A stretch of 44,102 bases of DNA from a virus, in the UHGV virus genome UHGV-0016039; one strand, 5' to 3'. Below the pieces are notes generated by a model, which searched no databases, was not told the origin of the DNA, and was given only the letters and a program-made list of their open reading frames with translations. Position numbers and translations under genes: made by a program. This document shows positions 3,003 to 44,102 of the stretch, piece after piece (within the stretch, counting starts at the first letter, position 1; each line of letters starts with the position of its first letter).

Positions 3003-3791
3003 ATGGCTAAAGTCAACCTGAAAAATGTGCGCGTATGTTTCCTGAAAATTTGGGAACGTGATACCCCTAAACAGGATGGACAAAAACCGGCATACCGCGC
3101 CGTGATTCTTCTTGATAAAGAAGACCCGCAGGTGGACAAAGTGGAGGCGGCAGCGCGCGCAGTGCTCACCGACAAGCTGAAATCCGAGAAGAATGCCGAT
3201 AAGTGGATGGACCGCCACTACGCCCAGGATTCTAAGGAATGTGCAGTTCGCGACGGCGACGAGCGCGATGAAGTAACCGAAGAGTTCGAAGGCATGTTGT
3301 ACATCAACGCCAAATCGTTCAAACAGCCTAACATCCAAACGTCACTGGGCGAGAAGCAGACCGAGCAAGGTCTGACCGTAGACGGCGACGAGATCGAAGG
3401 CCAGGAGATCTACTCCGGTTGTTATTGCAATGTGTCCCTGGATATTTGGGCGTGGAACAATACCAACGGCAAGGGGCTCGGGGCCGGCTTGCTGGGTCTG
3501 CGATTCCGTGAAGACGGCGAAGCCTTCGGGGGTGGCGGGTCTTCATGTTCTGACGAAGACCTGGACAACGATGACGAAGACGAAAGCCCGCGTAAGTCCA
3601 AAAAGTCAAAACGTCGTGATGACGATGACGAAGACGACAAGCCGCGTAAGTCCAAAAAATCCAAGCGCAGCGATGACGATGACGACGACGACGAAGACGA
3701 AAAGCCTCGCAAACGTCGTAAACCACGCGATGACGAAGATGAGGACGACGAAGACGAAGACGAAGCACCACGCAAACGTCGCCGCCGTTAA
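3003..3791 (+). CDS. DUF2815-type phage ssDNA-binding-like protein with C-terminal D/E-rich and PRKSKK repeat tail
   Basis: ATG 3003 preceded by GAGGAA; N-terminal MAKVNLKNVRV..F motif; gene order DUF2800-DUF2815-PolA. Confidence 0.7.
   Translation: MAKVNLKNVRVCFLKIWERDTPKQDGQKPAYRAVILLDKEDPQVDKVEAAARAVLTDKLKSEKNADKWMDRHYAQDSKECAVRDGDERDEVTEEFEGMLYINAKSFKQPNIQTSLGEKQTEQGLTVDGDEIEGQEIYSGCYCNVSLDIWAWNNTNGKGLGAGLLGLRFREDGEAFGGGGSSCSDEDLDNDDEDESPRKSKKSKRRDDDDEDDKPRKSKKSKRSDDDDDDDEDEKPRKRRKPRDDEDEDDEDEDEAPRKRRRR
3556..3788 (+). repeat. in-frame charged tandem repeats (DDDDEDD-KPRKSKKSKR units) at C-terminus of SSB-like protein
   Basis: repeated gacga(t/c)ga.. and ccgcgtaagtccaaaaa units visible in DNA. 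Confidence 0.65.
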
Positions 3792-6308: not shown

Positions 6309-6586
6309 TGACACCAGAAGGCAAGATTCAAAGTCACCTGATGAAACGGGTGAAAGAGGTCGGCGGATTCTGCCGCAAACTGGCATGGGAGGGACGCGCA
6401 GGTGCGCCCGACCTGATTATCATAATCAACGGCATCATAGTATTCGTCGAAGTGAAGCGCCCCGGAGGAAAACCGAAGCCACACCAGGTACGTGAGCATG
6501 AGCGAATGGTCCGCCGCGGTGCTGACGTTCGCGTCATCGACAACATATCCGACTGCGATTTATTGGTTGCTGAATTGGTCGCATAG
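6308..6586 (+). CDS. VRR-NUC domain nuclease
   Basis: ATG 6308 overlaps PolA stop (TAATG); GAPDLIII..VFVEVKRPGGKPKPHQ motif. Confidence 0.7.
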   Translation: MTPEGKIQSHLMKRVKEVGGFCRKLAWEGRAGAPDLIIIINGIIVFVEVKRPGGKPKPHQVREHERMVRRGADVRVIDNISDCDLLVAELVA

Positions 6587-6626
6587 CGGTATAGTGTGCC
6601 GGTTAGCCATATCGAGGATTTTAGAG

Positions 6627-6800
6627 ATGATTGAAGAAAAACGTTGTAGTAATTGCGGCTGTGTAAAGCCGCTATCCCAGTTCCACAAATACACCGGTAA
6701 GACTGCGCGCAGTCCAGACGGGTATCGGGCAGAGTGCAAATCGTGCCGCAATAAGAAAGAGCGCGAACGGCAGCGCCGCTACCGTGCAGAACAAAAATAA
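6627..6800 (+). CDS. small zinc-ribbon protein (CxxC...CxxC), basic C-terminus
   Basis: ATG 6627 preceded by GAGG; CSNCGC ... CKSCRNKK. Confidence 0.5.
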   Translation: MIEEKRCSNCGCVKPLSQFHKYTGKTARSPDGYRAECKSCRNKKERERQRRYRAEQK

Positions 6801-9503: not shown

Positions 9504-9507
9504 ATTG

Positions 9508-9536
9508 GTTGCACAACCATATTGGTTGCATTATAT
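9508..9536 (+). promoter_or_regulatory. sigma70-like promoter TTGCAC-17bp-TATATT with ATTGGTTGCA elements
   Basis: TTGCAC 9508-9513, TATATT 9531-9536; TTGGTTGCA at 9505 and 9521. Confidence 0.5.
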
Positions 9537-9539
9537 TGA

Positions 9540-9565
9540 GGGTGTCCGGTTTGGACGCCCTTTTT
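9540..9565 (+). terminator. hairpin plus T5 run (terminator for upstream operon or attenuator in 5' leader of gene at 9585)
   Basis: gggtgtccgg ttt ggacgccc followed by ttttt, starting about at the predicted TSS. Confidence 0.45.
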
Positions 9566-10963: not shown

Positions 10964-11430
10964 AATTACTGATTTGCGATTTGGATGGCGTTATTAATGG
11001 TTCAAGCGATGCGCGTGCCGACCTGGTTCCGGGCATAAAAACAAAATCCACCTTCTGGGCGAAGTGGCACAAAGCGCACGTCCGCGAAGACCTGAACATG
11101 GATATGCTGCCGCTGTTGCGCATGTACAAAGAGCAAGGCTTCGAGATCGCGTATCTGACAAACCGGCAGCTAGAATGTTGGGACACCACCGCCGAGCAAT
11201 TGGAGGTCTTCCCGGTAGGCAGGTTATTCATGCGCCACATGCTGGACGACACCCCGCCGCCAGAGTTTAAAGCGTGCGCTGTGTTCAAAATGGTCTGCTA
11301 TGCGGACGTATCGGAACTGGTCATCATTGAAGACTGTCCGAAGAACATCGCGGCAATTCGTCGGGCGTGCAGCGATTTAATCCCGAAAATTTACGCAATA
11401 AACGTTGCAAAATTTACTTGCAACCAATAG
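10960..11430 (+). CDS. HAD-superfamily phosphatase-like protein (possible nucleotidase)
   Basis: motif I LICDLDGVI, motif II AYLTNR, acidic motif IIEDC. Confidence 0.6.
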   Translation: MKLLICDLDGVINGSSDARADLVPGIKTKSTFWAKWHKAHVREDLNMDMLPLLRMYKEQGFEIAYLTNRQLECWDTTAEQLEVFPVGRLFMRHMLDDTPPPEFKACAVFKMVCYADVSELVIIEDCPKNIAAIRRACSDLIPKIYAINVAKFTCNQ

Positions 11431-11441
11431 GTTGGTTGCAG
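11418..11441 (+). promoter_or_regulatory. perfect 10-bp inverted repeat TTGCAACCAA-tagg-TTGGTTGCAg (candidate operator/promoter element)
   Basis: palindrome read directly from sequence, 50 bp upstream of ATG 11493. Confidence 0.45.
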
Positions 11442-11492
11442 TATCTTAATCACGTCGGGGGCAATACCGCCTCCACTAAAAAGGAAAACATC

Positions 11493-14416: not shown

Positions 14417-14437
14417 AGCTAAATCCTCTTAAATTGG

Positions 14438-14466
14438 TTGCATTCTTGATCGAGCGGTGTAATACT
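14438..14466 (+). promoter_or_regulatory. promoter TTGCAT-17bp-AATACT with ATTGGTTGCA element, driving + strand lipoprotein operon
   Basis: TTGGTTGCA at 14434; -35/-10 spacing 17. Confidence 0.45.
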
Positions 14467-24548: not shown

Positions 24549-24617
24549 TATGCAGTCCCCTTTTTTATGCAGTTGCCGATGGATATTGTATCAGCGATTT
24601 CAAAACAAACCTTATTC

Positions 24618-24932
24618 AGTCTCAGACGAGGGGGGCCATTGACCCCCGTCTAGTCTGAAAGACTGGGGTGCTGTCCCGCTGTCCCGATCGGCTAAAAACC
24701 GCGGCAGCACTGGCGGGGACGGGGTGCTGTCCCGCTTTGTCCCGCCCCTTGTTTGTCCCGCTTTTTGTCCCGCTTACTTTATGCAATAAAACTGCATATA
24801 TATGCGTATTTATGGGGTGAGACAAAACGGGGCGTCCCGCCTGTCCCGTTTTGAGTTTATGCAATGAAAGTGATTAGATATGCGGTTTTACAGAGGCGGG
24901 ACAAAACGGGACGTCCCGCCTGTCCCGCTTCA
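24618..24932. repeat. composite repeat copy A: GC hairpin, GTCCCGC/GCGGGAC iterons, TTTATGCA-N-TGCAT palindromes, internal ~75 bp tandem duplication
   Basis: near-identical to 41078-41260; at least 8 GTCCCGC copies. Confidence 0.7.
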
Positions 24933-30484: not shown

Positions 30485-30513
30485 TTGCAATCCTCGTATT
30501 GGTTGCATATATT
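30485..30513 (+). promoter_or_regulatory. sigma70-like promoter TTGCAA-17bp-TATATT with two TTGGTTGCA elements
   Basis: TTGCAA 30485-30490, TATATT 30508-30513; TTGGTTGCA at 30499 and 30513. Confidence 0.5.
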
Positions 30514-30542
30514 GGTTGCACACCAACAACGAGGACACCCAA

Positions 30543-31307
30543 ATGAGACTGACTAAAGTCATTAAAAATCAGATTCTGGCTAACATCCTGCGCGACCACG
30601 AAATAGCGACCAAAGCCAAACTAATAATGATGGACTCGCGTGACTTGGCTTATGCCGTTACGATGGACTGTATGCCGGAAGGCATTCGCACGTTCGCAGC
30701 GCTCCGCGAGCATATCAAGACATTCAGCGGCGACCAGTCGCCGATGTACGGCGTCAGCGTCTACACCAACAAGGCAACATATAGATATGACTCAGGCCTC
30801 CCTAAAGGTATAGGCAGCGTTTATGACGCCACTTTCGAAATAAACGCAGGCGGTAATGTTCGTACCCTATCATTGAGTGGTGACGGTCGGAGATTCCGCC
30901 AACACCGCGGATACTGGGAGGACAAGTATATGAATAAGCTCGCACCGGATCTTAGCGATATTGTTCCTGGGTTTGAAGAAGTTTTGCTGGCGTCAGTGTG
31001 CGAAGTGGACGAGGACGGGAAAGCGTTGCCGATATATCTTCCACGCGGTCGCGCAGATTACCCGGCGGACCATGATTTTTGTAAGCGCCTGGACTGTAAC
31101 GATAAGGCCCGCCGGGAGTTGCGTGCTAAGTATGACGCGTTCAAGTTGACCGTTACCGGTGTGCTGGACCTGCACAATACTGACAAGAAGCTGATTAAGG
31201 CATGGCCTGAAGTTGAGCAATTCATCCCTTACCCGGACAAGCCAAAATCCACGGCGGTGGCGCTGGATGTGAAAACTCTCAACGAGATTTGCGGTATTCC
31301 GCGCTAA
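30543..31307 (+). CDS. hypothetical protein (254 aa) encoded opposite to the flanking head genes (moron-like)
   Basis: ATG 30543 preceded by GAGGA; own promoter upstream and terminator downstream. Confidence 0.6.
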   Translation: MRLTKVIKNQILANILRDHEIATKAKLIMMDSRDLAYAVTMDCMPEGIRTFAALREHIKTFSGDQSPMYGVSVYTNKATYRYDSGLPKGIGSVYDATFEINAGGNVRTLSLSGDGRRFRQHRGYWEDKYMNKLAPDLSDIVPGFEEVLLASVCEVDEDGKALPIYLPRGRADYPADHDFCKRLDCNDKARRELRAKYDAFKLTVTGVLDLHNTDKKLIKAWPEVEQFIPYPDKPKSTAVALDVKTLNEICGIPR

Positions 31308-36428: not shown

Positions 36429-36641
36429 TTAAACGGCGCGACCGTAGTATCTGGTCAACATGCTTTCTACTTCGCTTATAGCGCCTTCTGTGTAGCGTAT
36501 TTGCGATAGTATCTCGATCCGCTCGCTAATAGACATGCCTATTGCCGCTGCCGTTCGCTCGAATCGGCGCAAGCCTTCAAGCTGTTTGCGTAGCTCTTTC
36601 AGGCGGGTGGCCTGCGTGCTCATGAATACTTGTCTGATCAT
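36429..36641 (-). CDS. hypothetical protein (70 aa)
   Basis: ATGA overlap with upstream phosphoesterase gene. Confidence 0.45.
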   Translation of the reverse strand: MIRQVFMSTQATRLKELRKQLEGLRRFERTAAAIGMSISERIEILSQIRYTEGAISEVESMLTRYYGRAV

Positions 36642-37780
36642 TTCAACATTTCCGGGCTAATGGTTAAGCGCGCTACTTCGCCGTAGTTGGCGCTATAGGT
36701 GATGACGTTTGCACTGCGACCGGACATCCAACCGCCACGGCTTGCATATGCATCTTTCGCGGCAAGCGTCCGGTGCTGTTCAACAATCATGTTGCGGGAT
36801 TCAACAATCTTCTGGTGGTGCAAGTGGCCTACGTGCGCGTAGCTGTACTCACTTGACCCGAAAGCCTGTCTGAATTTAGAAATCATGACAGGCTCGATGG
36901 CGTCAAATCGTGCTTTATGTCCGTGGTGGAAGAACAGCGTTGTTTTACCGTGCTGCACCATTTTGTAGACGTCCGGGGATGTGTCCACATCAACGCGCGG
37001 CTCGTTCTCGTACAGGGTATTGAACATCTCAGCCAGCCAAATCATACCGGACTCGTCATGATTACCCTGGACGATTAGTAGTTTGACCTTATGGTGTTTT
37101 TGCAGCGCCAGTTCAACCACGTTTCGCACCATGCGAATCATGTAGCGGACCAACTTCTGGTAGCGGGTATCGGCATCCAGTACGTGACCGCTGGCAGGGG
37201 TAACGGCATCGAGGCTGTCAAAGTGGGCCATATCACCGAGGATATTGATTACGGCAGTGCCCGCGTCCGGCGCGCGTGCGAAGGCTTCGACAAACCAGCG
37301 GTAGAACAGGTCTTCGGCGATTGCCATATCCCAGTCCTCGCCAGTCTCCTCGCCCCATGCCAACATGCCCAGGTGGAAGTCTGACACGGTGTACAGGTTG
37401 AGCAAATCAAGCGCCTGGATCGGTACTGGCGAGGCTTTTACTGGCGCTGCCGGTGTGATTTCGCTGTTCATACCCTCGACAACAGCGCGCATAGCTTCAA
37501 GCTGGCGCTCCTTGTCCTGCTCAGTGATGACCCAGGACATGACCTCTTCGCCATTGCCGCGCACCAGGGCCGATACGCGCTTAACCCCAAAGCCATCGGC
37601 AACTCGCTTGCGGATTACGGCATCGTTGCCGTGTCCAATGCCTTTTTTCGCCAGGCGGGCTTTCCGCATATAGACATTGCGTAGGGCAATCCCGTATTTC
37701 TTCGCAATATCTTTCGAGGTAGTGCCGGATTGTAATTCAGCAATCAATTGCTCGTCTGTGATTTTAGTTTGCGGGTGCAT
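36638..37780 (-). CDS. calcineurin-like metallophosphoesterase (SbcD/Mre11-like motifs) with N-terminal HTH
   Basis: VSDFHLG, GDMAHFD, GNHDE, HHGH motifs; N-terminal TTSKDIAKKYGIALRNVYMRKARL; ATG 37780 with AGGAAG. Confidence 0.7.
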   Translation of the reverse strand: MHPQTKITDEQLIAELQSGTTSKDIAKKYGIALRNVYMRKARLAKKGIGHGNDAVIRKRVADGFGVKRVSALVRGNGEEVMSWVITEQDKERQLEAMRAVVEGMNSEITPAAPVKASPVPIQALDLLNLYTVSDFHLGMLAWGEETGEDWDMAIAEDLFYRWFVEAFARAPDAGTAVINILGDMAHFDSLDAVTPASGHVLDADTRYQKLVRYMIRMVRNVVELALQKHHKVKLLIVQGNHDESGMIWLAEMFNTLYENEPRVDVDTSPDVYKMVQHGKTTLFFHHGHKARFDAIEPVMISKFRQAFGSSEYSYAHVGHLHHQKIVESRNMIVEQHRTLAAKDAYASRGGWMSGRSANVITYSANYGEVARLTISPEMLK

Positions 37781-40281: not shown

Positions 40282-40547
40282 TTGCTCAGTCTCCAGTGTT
40301 TGCCTACCCGCTCAACGGCGGGCTTCCGGCGTAATGTAATACGTATTCCCATTGGTTGCAAGGAAGTCCGCACCCTGAAATCGTGTTGTGCTGCGAACTG
40401 GTGCAAGTAGCGAGTCTGCGTCAGTGGCTTTACATCATCGCGATAGCTCCAGTACACAGAATCGCCTTCAGTCGCATTCTTAGCCCATATTCGTATGCAG
40501 TGAAGGGGAATACGCCATGAAAGCTGTTTAGCGCGCCTACGGCTCAT
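40278..40547 (-). CDS. hypothetical basic protein (89 aa)
   Basis: ORF track; ATG 40547 with AAGGG. Confidence 0.5.
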   Translation of the reverse strand: MSRRRAKQLSWRIPLHCIRIWAKNATEGDSVYWSYRDDVKPLTQTRYLHQFAAQHDFRVRTSLQPMGIRITLRRKPAVERVGKHWRLSK

Positions 40548-40555
40548 TTTGGCCC

Positions 40556-40861
40556 TTATTTCGCAAGCTGGGCGAATAGTTCACGCTGGGCTTTAATCCG
40601 GGCGACGTTTGTCACTGCCGTCTCACCGATCCCGAAGCGATACGCCAGGCGCTCACTGGCAAAAGCCATCGCATATTCGCAGATTGCCACGCGCAGCGGT
40701 TCCAGTTCGTCCAGGCTGGCAAACATATCGTCGAACGCGTCCATGATTCCCTGCTGGGCCAGGATAACAACCTGGCGCGCGTCGTCTGCGTTGCCGTTTG
40801 TGTGCTTCGCTTCGTACAGCTTCGCCACCGCCATTGTGTAATTCCAGATTAATGCTCTCAT
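40556..40861 (-). CDS. hypothetical protein (101 aa)
   Basis: ATG 40861 preceded by GAGGAC; conserved promoter upstream. Confidence 0.55.
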   Translation of the reverse strand: MRALIWNYTMAVAKLYEAKHTNGNADDARQVVILAQQGIMDAFDDMFASLDELEPLRVAICEYAMAFASERLAYRFGIGETAVTNVARIKAQRELFAQLAK

Positions 40862-40889
40862 CGTTCAGTCCTCATATTGGTGTGCAACC

Positions 40890-40918
40890 AATATAGCCAG
40901 GTGCCAGGCTGAATGCAA
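40890..40918 (-). promoter_or_regulatory. sigma70-like promoter TTGCAT-17bp-TATATT (- strand) with overlapping palindrome ATTGGT-gtgc-AACCAAT
   Basis: rc of 40913-40918 is TTGCAT, rc of 40890-40895 is TATATT; palindrome 40875-40894. Confidence 0.5.
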
Positions 40919-41077
40919 CCAATATTAATCACGCGTATGAAAAAGTTGATCGCTATCTGCTGAATCTGCAAACCGCATTTTTCACTTTCCATTCTGCAAC
41001 TCGCATTGGTTGCCGAGTTCATCGACGACCGCAATTTGCATCATGTTGCCGTGCGGTATGCAATCCTGGATTTTATG

Positions 41078-41260
41078 CAGTCTCAGACGAGGGGGGTGCC
41101 AGACCCCCCGTCTAGTCTGAAAGACTGGGGTGCCGTCCCGCTGTCCCGCTCCTCTGGAAGCCGCGTCATCCGGGGCGGGACGGGGGTGCTGTCCCGCTTT
41201 GTCCCGCCTCTGGTCTGTCCCGCCTTTTGTCCCGCTTGTTTTATGCAGTAAAATTGCATA
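41078..41260. repeat. composite repeat copy B (hairpin, GTCCCGC iterons, ATGCA-N7-TGCAT palindrome)
   Basis: near-identical to 24618-24800 except for a 35-bp substituted core. Confidence 0.7.
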
Positions 41261-41341
41261 ACTATTCACTATATCCACACTACACGGCAACCAATGCGAC
41301 CGACTAAAAGCACTCAAAATGGCAACCAATGCGCGCAGAAT

Positions 41342-43606
41342 TTAGTCTTTTAAGTCGTCATCGGTCGCAGAAAGCGTGGTGGGTATATTCGTTTTGATGA
41401 CGATATTCGACGACCCATAGATGGCCCCGGTGTGTGGGTCTGTATAAAAGCCGAGTACGCCGCGCTCCACCATATCGTCGATTGCCTTCGTCGATGTGCC
41501 ACCTTTTGCCAATCCCGCCTGGCGGACAATTGCCGATTTACTGAATCCGGTATGGTCCGGGTTATCTTCCATCAGTTTTTCCAGCGCCGCATAAAGCACT
41601 TTCTCTTTTTCGTTGCGCGGGCCTGCGGCGTTCTCGTCCTTAACTGCTGCCTTGCCCGCGGACTTCGCCTGCTCAATGGCGAACGGTGCCAGGGCAACTG
41701 GTACGAGGTAGAGAGTCTCGTCGCGTGGCGTGGATGCGATTGGCTTGACGTCCCAACCGGCAACCACATCGCCGAAGTCCGGCCCGGTGCTGGTGGACTG
41801 GTGGGCTTCGAACGCTTCGGACTTGCGGAGATCCACCTTAACCTTGCACTTGAGCAGGACGAAGCCGCGTGGCGCTTGCTTGATGCCGTTACGTGCCTTT
41901 TCGTGATACAGGTTCAATTGGCCTGGTTGGTTGTCGTCCGGCTGTTCCAGGAAGAACGCGGAATCAACAGCACCATGAAGCGCGCCGGACCCGCGTGGCG
42001 TTCTGCTGCCGTTTGCACCTTTCGCCGGGTGGTGGATGACGCCCGCACTGCCGCCTGTATTTTCCGCAATGGCTTTCAGCGCTTTGACCACTTCACCCAT
42101 ATCGCTGGCGTTGTTCTCGTCAAACGGTTTAGCATCGGCGGACCGCAGCGCAACAGTCTGGTTGAGGGAGTCGAACGCCACCAGGCCCACCGGTTCGCCG
42201 TTAGCGGTGCGGTTGATGAAGCTGATAACTTCACGCAAGCCGGATTTGCTGGTGATATCCCAGCCGCGAGATTGCAGGTCGATAATGTGCAGCTTGTCCA
42301 GGTCGTGCTCATATTTGATCTGCAGTGCTTCCTTACGCTGGTTGGAGGCTTCGCCACCTTCCGCATCGAAATAGAAGTTGTGGCACTGGACGACCTTCGC
42401 CCCGCCAAACGGAATACCGGCAGATACTGACGCCATCTGGCCCAGCACGTAGAACGACTTGCCGATGTTCGACTCACCGGCGAGATACCAGGTCGATTTG
42501 AAGTTGACCAGGCCTTCGATGATCGGGTCGTGCTTACTGAACAGTGCGACCGGCTCGTTGTCCAGGTCTGCATCAGTACACACGCCGTACTCGTCGCCGT
42601 CGCCAACCGCATCAACGATATGTTCATAGCAGGATTCCACTTCCTCGTCGTCCAGTCCCGGAAGGATGGCGGCGATTTGCTTACGTGACATGTTGTGCGG
42701 TTCGACGTTCAGGTGGTCCGGGATCCCGATAAGACGTAGCGCCAGGTGCTGGTGTCTGTTCAGTTCGGAACAGCACTCGTTTCCGGTGTGCATACACTTG
42801 AAACGGATCTCGCCATCCTTGACCATGATAGCGGTGGACCCTTCGCCGCTGTGCAGGTGTTCGTTCGGGCACGGCACTTCATAGCCCCGACCGGACGACA
42901 GCGGTTCGAATCCTGCCTTGAAGCACCAATCCAGAATACCGTCCGCCACGCCGTCATCGCCCTGGGTCAGTTCGCGGCGGACTTCCTCTTTCTCAACTCC
43001 CAGCTTGTCCGCCAGGCGGAGCAGACGGCGGACGCGGGCGCGCTTGCCGTAGTGGCACTTAATAACAGACTGCTGGTGTGGCAGGTACATCAGGCGGTTT
43101 GTGTCTTTCGTGCAGTCGTCGAAGTCCACATCTGACAGGCCCAGTTGGTGTAATAGCGCATACTGGACACGCCCCAGGTCTTCAGCCGGTACAGGCTTGT
43201 CGGTCAACACCAGGAAGCGAGCGCAACGCGTTCCACCTTTCAGTGGGTGACGGTCGCCGGTTGTGGTGTGAAATACGTGTTCCAGACCCGAGTCAATGAA
43301 CGCCTTACGGCAGCGGCGTAGGGTGCGGGTGTCGGTACGGTCAATATCGAAGAACAGGATCGAGCGGTCCACCGCGCTGGTCTTGCGACGTAAGCCGTCA
43401 CTGGTATAAGCCACAATGCCATCGGCCTTACGCTTGCGGCGCGCATACTCCGCTTTATCTTCCGTCTTGTTGATATGCACCGAGGATATTTCTTTCGCAT
43501 CATTAATAAATTCGAAAAACTCATCAGTGGTCATCTGGAAGTTTTCCGCCCTGGCTTTTTCGCCTTTTTTAGCGGGTCTTGTTACTGCGAATTTAATTAA
43601 GCTCAT
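41342..43606 (-). CDS. DNA primase / RecA-like (DnaB/RepA-type) helicase fusion protein
   Basis: Walker A AGESNIGKS, Walker B-like VAFDSLNQ, Cys/His cluster, 754 aa. Confidence 0.8.
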   Translation of the reverse strand: MSLIKFAVTRPAKKGEKARAENFQMTTDEFFEFINDAKEISSVHINKTEDKAEYARRKRKADGIVAYTSDGLRRKTSAVDRSILFFDIDRTDTRTLRRCRKAFIDSGLEHVFHTTTGDRHPLKGGTRCARFLVLTDKPVPAEDLGRVQYALLHQLGLSDVDFDDCTKDTNRLMYLPHQQSVIKCHYGKRARVRRLLRLADKLGVEKEEVRRELTQGDDGVADGILDWCFKAGFEPLSSGRGYEVPCPNEHLHSGEGSTAIMVKDGEIRFKCMHTGNECCSELNRHQHLALRLIGIPDHLNVEPHNMSRKQIAAILPGLDDEEVESCYEHIVDAVGDGDEYGVCTDADLDNEPVALFSKHDPIIEGLVNFKSTWYLAGESNIGKSFYVLGQMASVSAGIPFGGAKVVQCHNFYFDAEGGEASNQRKEALQIKYEHDLDKLHIIDLQSRGWDITSKSGLREVISFINRTANGEPVGLVAFDSLNQTVALRSADAKPFDENNASDMGEVVKALKAIAENTGGSAGVIHHPAKGANGSRTPRGSGALHGAVDSAFFLEQPDDNQPGQLNLYHEKARNGIKQAPRGFVLLKCKVKVDLRKSEAFEAHQSTSTGPDFGDVVAGWDVKPIASTPRDETLYLVPVALAPFAIEQAKSAGKAAVKDENAAGPRNEKEKVLYAALEKLMEDNPDHTGFSKSAIVRQAGLAKGGTSTKAIDDMVERGVLGFYTDPHTGAIYGSSNIVIKTNIPTTLSATDDDLKD

Positions 43607-43616
43607 TGCCGTGGCC

Positions 43617-43946
43617 TTACTTAAAAGTTTTATTATTGCGTACCCAGGAGCGCACTGTGCTCTGATTAATTCCGGTCAACTCGGCAATCATCGCCCACGA
43701 TTTTCCCTCGTCGCGCAAACGTATAACCTGCTTTTTGTATTCTTCCATTTCTTCATTGTGCTTTTGCAGCTTGCTCGCGGCCGTGCCGTTGAGCAATTCC
43801 AGCCTGGCGCGTAATTCTTTCTCGACACTGCGCAGTCGTTCGATTTCAAATAACACCGCCCCCACGGCATCTGTATAAGCCCATGACCGGCTTGTCTCAC
43901 TGCAAACAGTCTTCGTTAACATTTCGATTGCGCCGTTTACATTCAT
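43617..43946 (-). CDS. HTH DNA-binding protein (109 aa)
   Basis: C-terminal HTH-like WAMIAELTGINQSTVRSWVRNN; ATG 43946 with GAGGG. Confidence 0.55.
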   Translation of the reverse strand: MNVNGAIEMLTKTVCSETSRSWAYTDAVGAVLFEIERLRSVEKELRARLELLNGTAASKLQKHNEEMEEYKKQVIRLRDEGKSWAMIAELTGINQSTVRSWVRNNKTFK

Positions 43947-44102
43947 TGCTCTGCCCTCAGTTGGTTAATGACCAACGAAACTACACCCAAAACCGCACGG
44001 TGTCAAATCCTTTGGATATTGAAACGGGCGCGCACGCGTGTAATAATAATTCCCGTCTCATTGTCTCTTATTGGTTAGCGCCGTCGCATTTTGCCTCGGC
44101 GC

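Follow-up and report, generated by a model that had tools for sequence, protein, structure and literature searches.

A conserved inverted repeat at a predicted Dhillonvirus promoter is probably an operator built on a genome-wide 9-bp box

Here, we analyse an inverted repeat at positions 40874–40894 of UHGV-0016039, a 44,102-bp viral DNA that we call the window and that represents a complete, circularly permuted Dhillonvirus genome (HK578-like virulent siphophages of Escherichia coli). The repeat lies over the start of a predicted leftward promoter, referred to below as promoter 40918. On balance, we think that it probably serves as a start-site-proximal operator of this conserved sigma-70-type promoter, the unit of recognition being a 9-bp box, ATTGGTTGC, which belongs to a genome-wide family and would be read by a sequence-specific protein. 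This view is based on the position of the repeat within the promoter core, on conservation among related phages, and on the distribution of the box over the genome.

Results

The repeat is perfect. Its arms, ATATTGGT (40874–40881) and ACCAATAT (40887–40894), are complementary at 8/8 positions and flank a 5-nt spacer, gtgca. A shorter repeat reported in the first-pass annotation (ATTGGT, 40876–40881, facing AACCAAT, 40886–40892) is nested within it, and the extent given there, 40875–40894, was correct to within 1–2 nt. The promoter is on the - strand. Its -35 hexamer, TTGCAT (40913–40918), matches the consensus at 3/6 positions and is followed by a 17-nt spacer (40896–40912), the -10 hexamer TATATT (40890–40895) and, 7 nt past the -10, a transcription start that our own promoter scan predicts at the A at 40883. 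Relative to this predicted +1, the repeat covers about -11 to +10; it overlaps the -10 and the start, as had been claimed, and this placement over the promoter core has the geometry of a repressor operator. A Shine-Dalgarno sequence, GAGGA (40869–40873, - strand), lies 2 nt past ACCAAT and 7 nt before the ATG (40861–40859), which is itself 22 nt downstream of the predicted start. Two copies of the box are present on the same strand. Box 1 (40915–40923) is located at -40 to -32 and contains the TTGC of the -35; box 2 (40884–40892) is located at about -9 to -1 and overlaps the -10. The two form an exact 12-nt direct repeat, 31 nt apart, and a conserved ACCAA follows at +3 to +7.

We aligned the promoter region from 15 Dhillonvirus genomes and counted invariant columns. 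Box 1 in its extended form, ATATTGGTTGCA (40914–40925), is invariant in 11/12 columns, with the TTGC of the -35 unchanged throughout. The spacer segment, comprising 18 columns when the last base of the -35 is counted, has 3 invariant columns and no indels, indicating a fixed length and a variable sequence. In the -10, positions 1, 2, 4, 5 and 6 are invariant, and the third is T or G (TAGATT in 5/15 genomes). The rest of box 2, GGTTGC, is invariant in 5/6 columns, and ACCAA in 4/5. Within these 15 genomes, both half-sites (TTGGT and ACCAA) are maintained, unlike the outer 3 bp of the arms: TAT (40876–40874) is invariant in 0/3 columns, the first T being unique to the window, and relatives carry ACCAAC where the window has ACCAAT. 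As judged from this alignment, the conserved dyad is TTGGT-TGCAC-ACCAA rather than the 8-bp palindrome, whose outer 3 bp are genome-specific. The footprint is what would be expected of a working sigma-70 promoter, with hexamers 17 nt apart facing a gene, key positions conserved and a spacer drifting at constant length, plus two further constrained elements. The TTGCAT-17-TATATT promoter that was proposed to read into the gene cluster at 40861 has therefore gained comparative support, in that key hexamer positions are invariant, the spacer is fixed at 17 nt, and a Shine-Dalgarno sequence and ATG follow.

The core of the repeat, TTGGT-N5-ACCAA (40877–40891), recurs. There are exactly three copies in the window (at 30512, 40877 and 43961), each over a predicted start site; no TTGGT/ACCAA dyad with a spacer of 0–4 or 6–11 nt occurs in the window, and no N5 dyad occurs in 20 simulated genomes. 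In addition, a 19-mer, TATATTGGTTGCACACCAA, is found twice in the window, here and at 30508–30526, facing a gene in each case. The latter copy belongs to a sister promoter, TTGCAA-17-TATATT (30485–30526, + strand), with boxes at 30498 and 30511 and the dyad TTGGTTGCACACCAA at 30512–30526, ahead of an Nmad5 gene whose ATG is at 30543. The third dyad, TTGGTcattaACCAA (43975–43961), lies over the predicted start of the early leftward promoter (43961–44006, - strand; TTGACA at 44006–44001, 17 nt, TAGTTT at 43983–43978) of a gene encoding a 109-residue protein with a helix-turn-helix (HTH). The same dyad is thus present at other promoters, that of a putative regulator included, and its position on the HTH gene's own promoter suggests the pattern expected of an autoregulated regulator. 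Perfect inverted repeats with 8-bp arms (loops of 0–10 nt) number 21 in the window versus about 8.7 in first-order Markov simulations. Taken alone, the 8-bp palindrome is no better than a chance-level feature; recurrence and conservation raise it above chance. The proposal that the palindrome is an operator therefore finds support for its core, which recurs at two other predicted starts, but not for the 8-bp form, which is specific to the window genome.

The sister cassette (30485–30526) is invariant in 13 sequences, where it precedes three cargo genes: Nmad5 in the window, a DnaN-like gene in phage TheodorHerzl, and a third elsewhere. The region 30485–31307 resembles a moron exchange site, on the strand opposite to the structural genes.

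The box itself is far more widespread than the dyad. ATTGGTTGC occurs in 14 exact copies versus 0.54 expected for the whole window, and 11 of the 14 are intergenic, although intergenic DNA makes up 7.9% of the genome (binomial P = 2e-10). With a trailing A (ATTGGTTGCA) it is tied for the commonest 10-mer of the genome. All 14 boxes are found at orthologous places in TheodorHerzl. One over-represented asymmetric word concentrated in intergenic promoter cores is what a dispersed regulon with an asymmetric operator would look like. Our promoter scan, which is looser than generic ones, predicts nine promoters with boxes within the core (-42 to about +12), and almost all promoters predicted for the early and middle region have such a box. 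Besides 40883, predicted starts lie at about 57, 2944, 6602, 9544, 11454, 30520 and 43971. Hence, the operator proposed at 40874–40894 appears real by its conservation, but it is not isolated; it is one of a genome-wide family that also supplies the promoter's own -35. A second over-represented 9-mer, ACGGCAGCG, is also present (17 copies versus 0.81 expected, on both strands); it lies mostly within genes (e.g., 327, 6767, 8510, 18635, 34874 and 43307).

Three arrangements of the box are evident. In promoters 40918, 9509, 6567 and 14438, as well as in the L140 equivalent described below, a forward box at -40 to -32 gives the TTGC of the -35, and such promoters usually have a second forward box in the spacer or on the -10. 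The promoter ahead of a 57-residue zinc-ribbon gene (6562–6595, + strand) has its box at -40 to -32, a near-box in the spacer (6574–6582) and the -10 TATAGT. Another (9504–9537, + strand) has box 9504 at -40 to -32, box 9521 in the spacer and the -10 TATATT, and a third (14433–14466, + strand), in the divergent tail-fibre/lipoprotein region, combines a box at -40 to -32 with the -10 AATACT. Where the -35 is closer to consensus (promoters at 21 and 2909), reversed boxes are seen instead in the spacer beside the -10. The early rightward promoter TTGACA-18-TATCAT (21–50, + strand) has a reversed box at 35–43, in the spacer next to the -10, and the SSB-gene promoter TTGACC-17-TAGATT (2909–2947, + strand) has reversed near-boxes, GCAACCAAG, at 2923 in the spacer and at 2939 just past the -10. 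A promoter at 11418–11447 (+ strand) contains an inverted box pair, GCAACCAAT-ag-GTTGGTTGC (11420–11439), over the -35 and spacer, and its -10, TATCTT (11442–11447), is TATAGT in relatives. One exact box lies within a coding region (40351–40359, + strand), where the opposite strand gives TTGCAA-17-TACATT. Alignments of further regions, with 7–13 distinct sequences per region, show boxes and -10 fixed and the intervening sequence free to vary; the same footprint is seen at five other promoters, in the divergent early region and at the SSB promoter. Most hits from IMG/VR scans for ATTGGTTGCACACCAA and for tandem boxes were fortuitous or came from other tandem repeats in contigs without relation to these phages, and they were of no use for testing co-occurrence; the Dhillonvirus loci among them were reused in the promoter-cassette alignments.

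Promoter 9509 has a further feature. A terminator-like hairpin begins within 3 nt of its -10 (9540–9560 plus T5; region 9532–9565). As transcription is predicted to start at about 9544, within the 5′ arm, the hairpin would stop transcripts from upstream and not those of promoter 9509.

The box extends to distant relatives. In sequences L140 and L142, whose primase-helicases are 66–69% identical to that of the window, ATTGGTTGC is the commonest 9-mer (10 and 8 copies per 20 kb, respectively) and occurs in similar places. Their equivalent of promoter 40918 has its second box in the spacer, and L140 also has boxes downstream of the start. In the Edwardsiella phage eiAU (Eiauvirus; primase-helicase 45% identical), there are 21 copies of TTGGTTGC, 15 of them intergenic. 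One eiAU promoter has the same layout, with a box as the -35 TTGCAT, 17 nt, TATAGT overlapping a second box, an inverted GCAACCA, and GGAG; a different dyad is present at the equivalent place. Eight copies of TTGGTTGC, in both orientations, directly follow the stop codon of the eiAU primase-helicase. In Salmonella phage sp9, the replication module is the same and a homologue of the Cro/C1-type protein of eiAU is present, yet the box is not enriched. Common to the window, eiAU and sp9 are the 57-residue zinc ribbon, the primase-helicase and the first rightward gene. On these comparisons, there is no single phage protein whose presence would track the box.

The candidate binders named in the first-pass annotation were two HTH proteins. 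The 109-residue protein (43617–43946, - strand) has a long helix at residues 22–79 and a C-terminal HTH at 84–107. It matches HTH_23, HTH_28 and Sigma70_r4_2 above Pfam gathering thresholds (residues 65–107), and its AlphaFold model (predicted local distance difference test score 82.6) shows a 58-residue helix followed by a minimal HTH. The N-terminal 45 residues are hypervariable and unalignable between alleles, and the C-terminal 60 are almost invariant. Searches of PDB sequences returned generic HTH repeats only for this protein and no match for the primase-helicase, and a related-locus profile search with the HTH alignment returned the same clade only. The recognition helix and the box are both invariant, so helix–box covariation cannot be read; HK578 carries the sole divergent allele and gives a mixed signal. 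Database names attached to the 109-residue protein (transposase, resolvase, Gam-like nuclease inhibitor) find no support here. The second protein, encoded at 36638–37780, has only a sub-threshold, N-terminal HTH match, and no match to it was found in two 20-kb segments of L140 and L142 that span lysozyme to terminase, the position it occupies in the window. No C1-like domain was found among the window proteins scanned, and no homologues of MotA, AsiA, p4, Mor or C were detected. The zinc-ribbon protein (6627–6800) has a CxxC-X26-CxxC motif and a basic tail. Versions of it are conserved in eiAU (62%) and sp9 (50%), in every case with a tandem-box promoter upstream. In PHROG, it matches a 'Lar-like' family as well as the zinc ribbon found in endonuclease VII and HNH enzymes.

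The 480-bp intergenic region 40862–41341, at the lower-coordinate end of which promoter 40918 and the repeat are located, holds five boxes in all: those at 40915 and 40884 in the promoter, and CGCATTGGTTGCC variants at 41005, 41287 and 41322. The first variant (41002–41014, + strand) is on the lower-coordinate side of a block of iterons; the other two (41282–41333, - strand) lie just past the primase-helicase stop, where relatives have 1–3 copies. Beside the primase-helicase gene, boxes thus number 3 here, 1–3 in relatives and 8 in eiAU, which may represent an origin-type cluster. Segments 41001–41018 and 41282–41299 form an 18-nt long-range inverted repeat (94% complementary) that contains CGCATTGGTTGCC and brackets the iteron block. 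In relatives with an extra box unit on the primase-helicase side, this unit brings a palindrome, ATATGGGAATTCCCATAT. The block belongs to a hairpin-plus-iteron element of about 190 bp found in two copies, 41073–41265 and 24612–24803 (with further repeats to 24930), which are 16.5 kb apart and 84% identical. In order, the element comprises a G6/C6 hairpin, AGTCTgaaAGACT, and TGTCCCGC iterons (14 in the window versus 2 expected). The copy at 41073 comes after the primase-helicase gene and that at 24612 between tail genes; annotated short open reading frames that overlap them are probably spurious. A DnaA-box-like word near 41272, TATCCACA, was dropped because it is not conserved in relatives. 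In eiAU (L275, 22290–22760), a long inverted repeat, CCCCGGGGGCACTTATTGATTTATAAGG / CCTTATAAATCAATAAGTGCCCCGGGG, flanks AT-rich DNA among the 8 boxes, giving the region an origin-like look.

The ACCAA half-site is also seen apart from the dyad. ACCAA(Y) lies 1–4 nt 5′ of the Shine-Dalgarno sequence in 7/58 genes (versus 3.5% of random 45-mers), always in the mRNA sense. These genes start at 247, 14416, 14497, 30543, 37780, 40861 and 43946, and each comes first after an intergenic gap. In eiAU, the homologue of the first rightward gene carries the leader TAACCAACTGAGGA, which is almost identical to that of the window's HTH gene. The + strand from about 44026 to 44102, continuing into 1–9, has a promoter-like TTGAAA-17-AATAAT and, about 65 nt beyond it, a terminator (GCGCCG...CGGCGC plus T9), the stem of which shows two compensatory changes in L016. 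The unit, which includes the near-box UUAUUGGUUAG, may encode a small RNA or represent an attenuated leader; a 36-aa reading frame is annotated there in TheodorHerzl.

The gene map into which these elements fall was built by annotation transfer from TheodorHerzl; the window is about 91–93% identical to TheodorHerzl, JLBYU60, SM_A8 and similar phages. The early region is divergent and spans both window ends. On the + strand, replication and nucleotide-metabolism genes extend from 247 to about 12630. On the - strand, the HTH gene is followed by the primase-helicase gene (41342–43606), the 480-bp intergenic region and the first gene served by promoter 40918 (40556–40861; 101 residues, PHROG 9839, unknown function), and then by an unbroken run of lysis, terminase, head and tail genes. 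The first rightward gene, at 346–710, and the C-terminal tail of an SSB-like gene, at 3546–3790, share repeated acidic/basic coding units (DDDD...EDEKPAKSKK). Consensus promoters number at most three in GenBank records of Dhillonviruses; those in the HK578 record, three in total, all fall within the divergent region.

Discussion

From the positions, statistics and conservation of these sequence features, we infer that a DNA-binding protein recognises the box and times phage transcription. Promoter 40918 would head the leftward block of the 101-residue gene and the lysis, packaging, head and tail genes. Its functional unit would be the asymmetric box at -9 to -1 together with ACCAA at +3 to +7, rather than the 8-bp palindrome, with the other box, at -40 to -32, supplying a weak -35. 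A protein that occupied box 2 and ACCAA would mask the -10 and the predicted start, which is a repressive geometry. Bound to the -35 box, it might instead compete with region 4 of sigma, or else recruit polymerase as a class II-type activator.

Several observations weigh against this interpretation. A generic sigma-70 promoter and terminator scan of 40400–41500 did not report promoter 40918, because TTGCAT fits TTGACA at only 3/6 positions; it was for this reason that we used the looser scan. No TTGGT-N5-ACCAA was found in the L140, L142 and L158 sequences; distant relatives thus have the box without the dyad, and the second arm may not be a half-site at all. Box-to-box spacings (12, 13, 17, 31 and 35 nt, both direct and inverted) are awkward for a rigid dimer. 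Some of the genes with ACCAA(Y) leaders have no nearby TTGGT, hinting at a function in the leader. As for the 109-residue protein, Foldseek searches with its model returned generic HTH domains only, at E >0.5. HK578 keeps the operator at 40874–40894, although its HTH gene is divergent (48% identical) and has a promoter lacking the dyad. Finally, eiAU has no homologue of the HTH protein; a non-homologous 69-residue Cro/C1-type gene occupies that position.

Which protein would read the box is a separate matter. With the dyad on three predicted starts, including that of its own gene, the HTH protein is the obvious candidate, and its claim rests on a credible HTH and on the dyad at its promoter. 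However, eiAU has the box system with an unrelated protein in that place. Within the Dhillonviruses, the 109-residue coiled-coil/HTH protein is the best candidate by position, though we regard its assignment as tentative and doubtful. We consider a factor shared with Eiauvirus, whether encoded by phage or host, no less probable, and place some weight on a host protein.

It is also possible, if unlikely, that the 9-mer is the recognition site of the phage replication initiator, akin to a DnaA box clustered at an origin, with the promoter copies tying transcription to initiator occupancy; the repeat at 40874–40894 would in that case be an initiator site with a promoter incidentally beneath it. 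This idea overlaps with the operator interpretation and differs mainly in the identity and purpose of the binder. In its favour, three CGCATTGGTTGCC variants bracket the iteron-and-hairpin block directly past the primase-helicase stop; the eiAU boxes lie in the corresponding place, amid a long inverted repeat and stretches of AT-rich DNA; the same box clusters also occur in L140 and L142; and the box is asymmetric and free in its arrangement. Yet most boxes lie at fixed promoter-core positions far from the putative origin. Moreover, the C-terminal part of the window primase-helicase does not align with that of eiAU, which has the box, and does align with that of sp9, which lacks it; the lineage-specific TGTCCCGC iterons are better candidates for the target of this domain. 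Polymerase alone could in principle read the box as an extended -35 or discriminator, spread by cassette duplication without a trans-acting factor. In at least four promoters, TTGC falls on -35 to -32, which fits such a scheme, and the 19-mer identity of two promoters and the cassette ahead of three cargo genes do resemble the spread of a promoter module. We nevertheless give it little credence: promoters whose -35 is already TTGACA or TTGACC have conserved reversed boxes in their spacers, boxes occur past the start in L140, and a cluster without promoters follows the primase-helicase gene. None of these boxes can be -35 elements, which is why we favour a trans-acting DNA-binding factor over a polymerase-only signal. 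An RNA-level role, in which ACCAA by the Shine-Dalgarno sequence or a hairpin formed by the repeat in read-through transcripts acts in the mRNA leader (in translation, in processing or as a small-RNA target), seems comparably improbable. The seven ACCAA(Y) leaders, related leaders in L140, L142 and eiAU, and the complementary UUAUUGGUUAG in the unit at about 44026–9 speak for it. On the other hand, the hairpin is unremarkable when its folding is compared with that of shuffled sequences (-8.4 kcal/mol, z = -0.67; sister dyads -3.7 and -4.0 kcal/mol, z >0), and only its 3′ arm would be transcribed from the predicted start. The small-RNA/leader duplex is not significant (35/200 shuffled seeds equal the best, 5/200 the top five), the ACCAA of the lipoprotein-gene leader is not strictly conserved, and boxes upstream of starts are left without explanation. 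In line with this, no Rfam family matched in a scan of the whole window, and a terminator scan called no intrinsic terminator at the repeat.

Two further explanations can be discounted more firmly. A host GntR/FadR-type regulator such as PdhR could be imagined to bind the dyad, given that ATTGGT-N5-ACCAAT has the half-sites of the PdhR box, AATTGGTnnnACCAATT (PMC7660256). This strikes us as very improbable, for all three dyads have a spacer of 5 rather than 3 and the genome has no N = 3 dyad; in addition, relatives carry ACCAAC, the conserved unit is an asymmetric 9-mer with a TTGC extension, and distant relatives lack the dyad altogether. That the palindrome arose by chance and has no function of its own is less probable still. 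The number of 8-bp inverted repeats in the window and the lack of conservation of the outer 3 bp are compatible with chance, but the inner 15 bp are nearly invariant in the 15 genomes, beside a freely varying spacer, and recur exactly at a second promoter. The chance explanation is largely refuted for the core and stands only for 40874–40876 and 40892–40894. A sigma-54 promoter (TGGCAC ... TTGCA) was also considered and rejected on inspection, the GG-to-GC spacing being wrong in every arrangement checked.

Several known systems bear comparison with the proposed operator family. The C1 repressor of phage P1 recognises an asymmetric word at more than 10 dispersed sites, over the -35 or -10 of many operons, with some sites paired into partial palindromes. 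The window box is likewise asymmetric, scattered, located in promoter cores and partly paired. P1, however, is temperate, whereas the window phage is virulent, and the P1 operator, 17 bp long and AT-rich, shows no relation to ATTGGTTGC. In the KorA/KorB system of IncP plasmids, a small HTH protein acts at identical operators in many promoter cores, including its own; this is a plasmid system, its operators are strictly palindromic, and they have no sequence relation to the box. The MotA box of T4, p4 of phi29, and Mor and C of Mu mediate the switch from early to middle or late promoters. As with MotA, the window box replaces a consensus -35 before a good -10 in a subset of the promoters of a virulent phage that uses the host polymerase, and an early protein could activate box promoters while shutting early ones. 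The window boxes differ in lying also in spacers, on -10/+1 and past starts, which are blocking positions.

Operators of lambda Cro and CI resemble the window site in having a short dyad, with half-sites 10 bp apart centre to centre over the -10 and start, and a sister site at an early HTH gene. Here, only 5-bp half-sites are conserved, the candidate protein as modelled is a coiled coil with a minimal HTH rather than a Cro/CI fold, and more distant relatives retain the box without the dyad. DnaA and the alpha protein of P4, which binds type I iterons at ori and crr, offer a further parallel. The window 8–9-mer is asymmetric, occurs in both orientations and is clustered by the primase-helicase gene, with more copies in promoters, and the hairpin and TGTCCCGC iterons are found at two distant loci, as are ori and crr. 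No sequence relation to these proteins was found in the PDB, however, and the DnaA-box-like word is not conserved.

Following this parallel, one protein common to Dhillonviruses and Eiauviruses might read (A/G)TTGGTTGC both at the replication origin and in nearly all promoter cores, in the manner of DnaA. We consider this a speculative and rather improbable extension of the operator interpretation. If it were true, replication would multiply the boxes, titrate the protein and free promoter 40918, coupling late expression to DNA copy number, and the ACCAA next to first-gene ribosome-binding sites would contribute a further level of control, in translation.

Operators of this sort are ordinary as a kind of element. 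This particular signal and its occurrence in two phage genera seem not to have been described before; neither the box nor the architecture of Dhillonvirus promoters was found described in the literature, most subscription journals being outside our reach. Dhillonviruses are common virulent coliphages, represented in the BASEL collection, used in work on defence systems and considered as therapy candidates, and their transcription programme is essentially unannotated. The present analysis poses a testable question, namely which protein reads the box and whether it links replication to late transcription. The cassette at 30485–30526, which already bears exchangeable cargo in nature, may offer a handle for engineering. 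More generally, a 9-bp word that marks nearly all predicted promoters, among them the promoter that leads into the lysis and morphogenesis genes, would provide a ready map of the transcription units of these phages.

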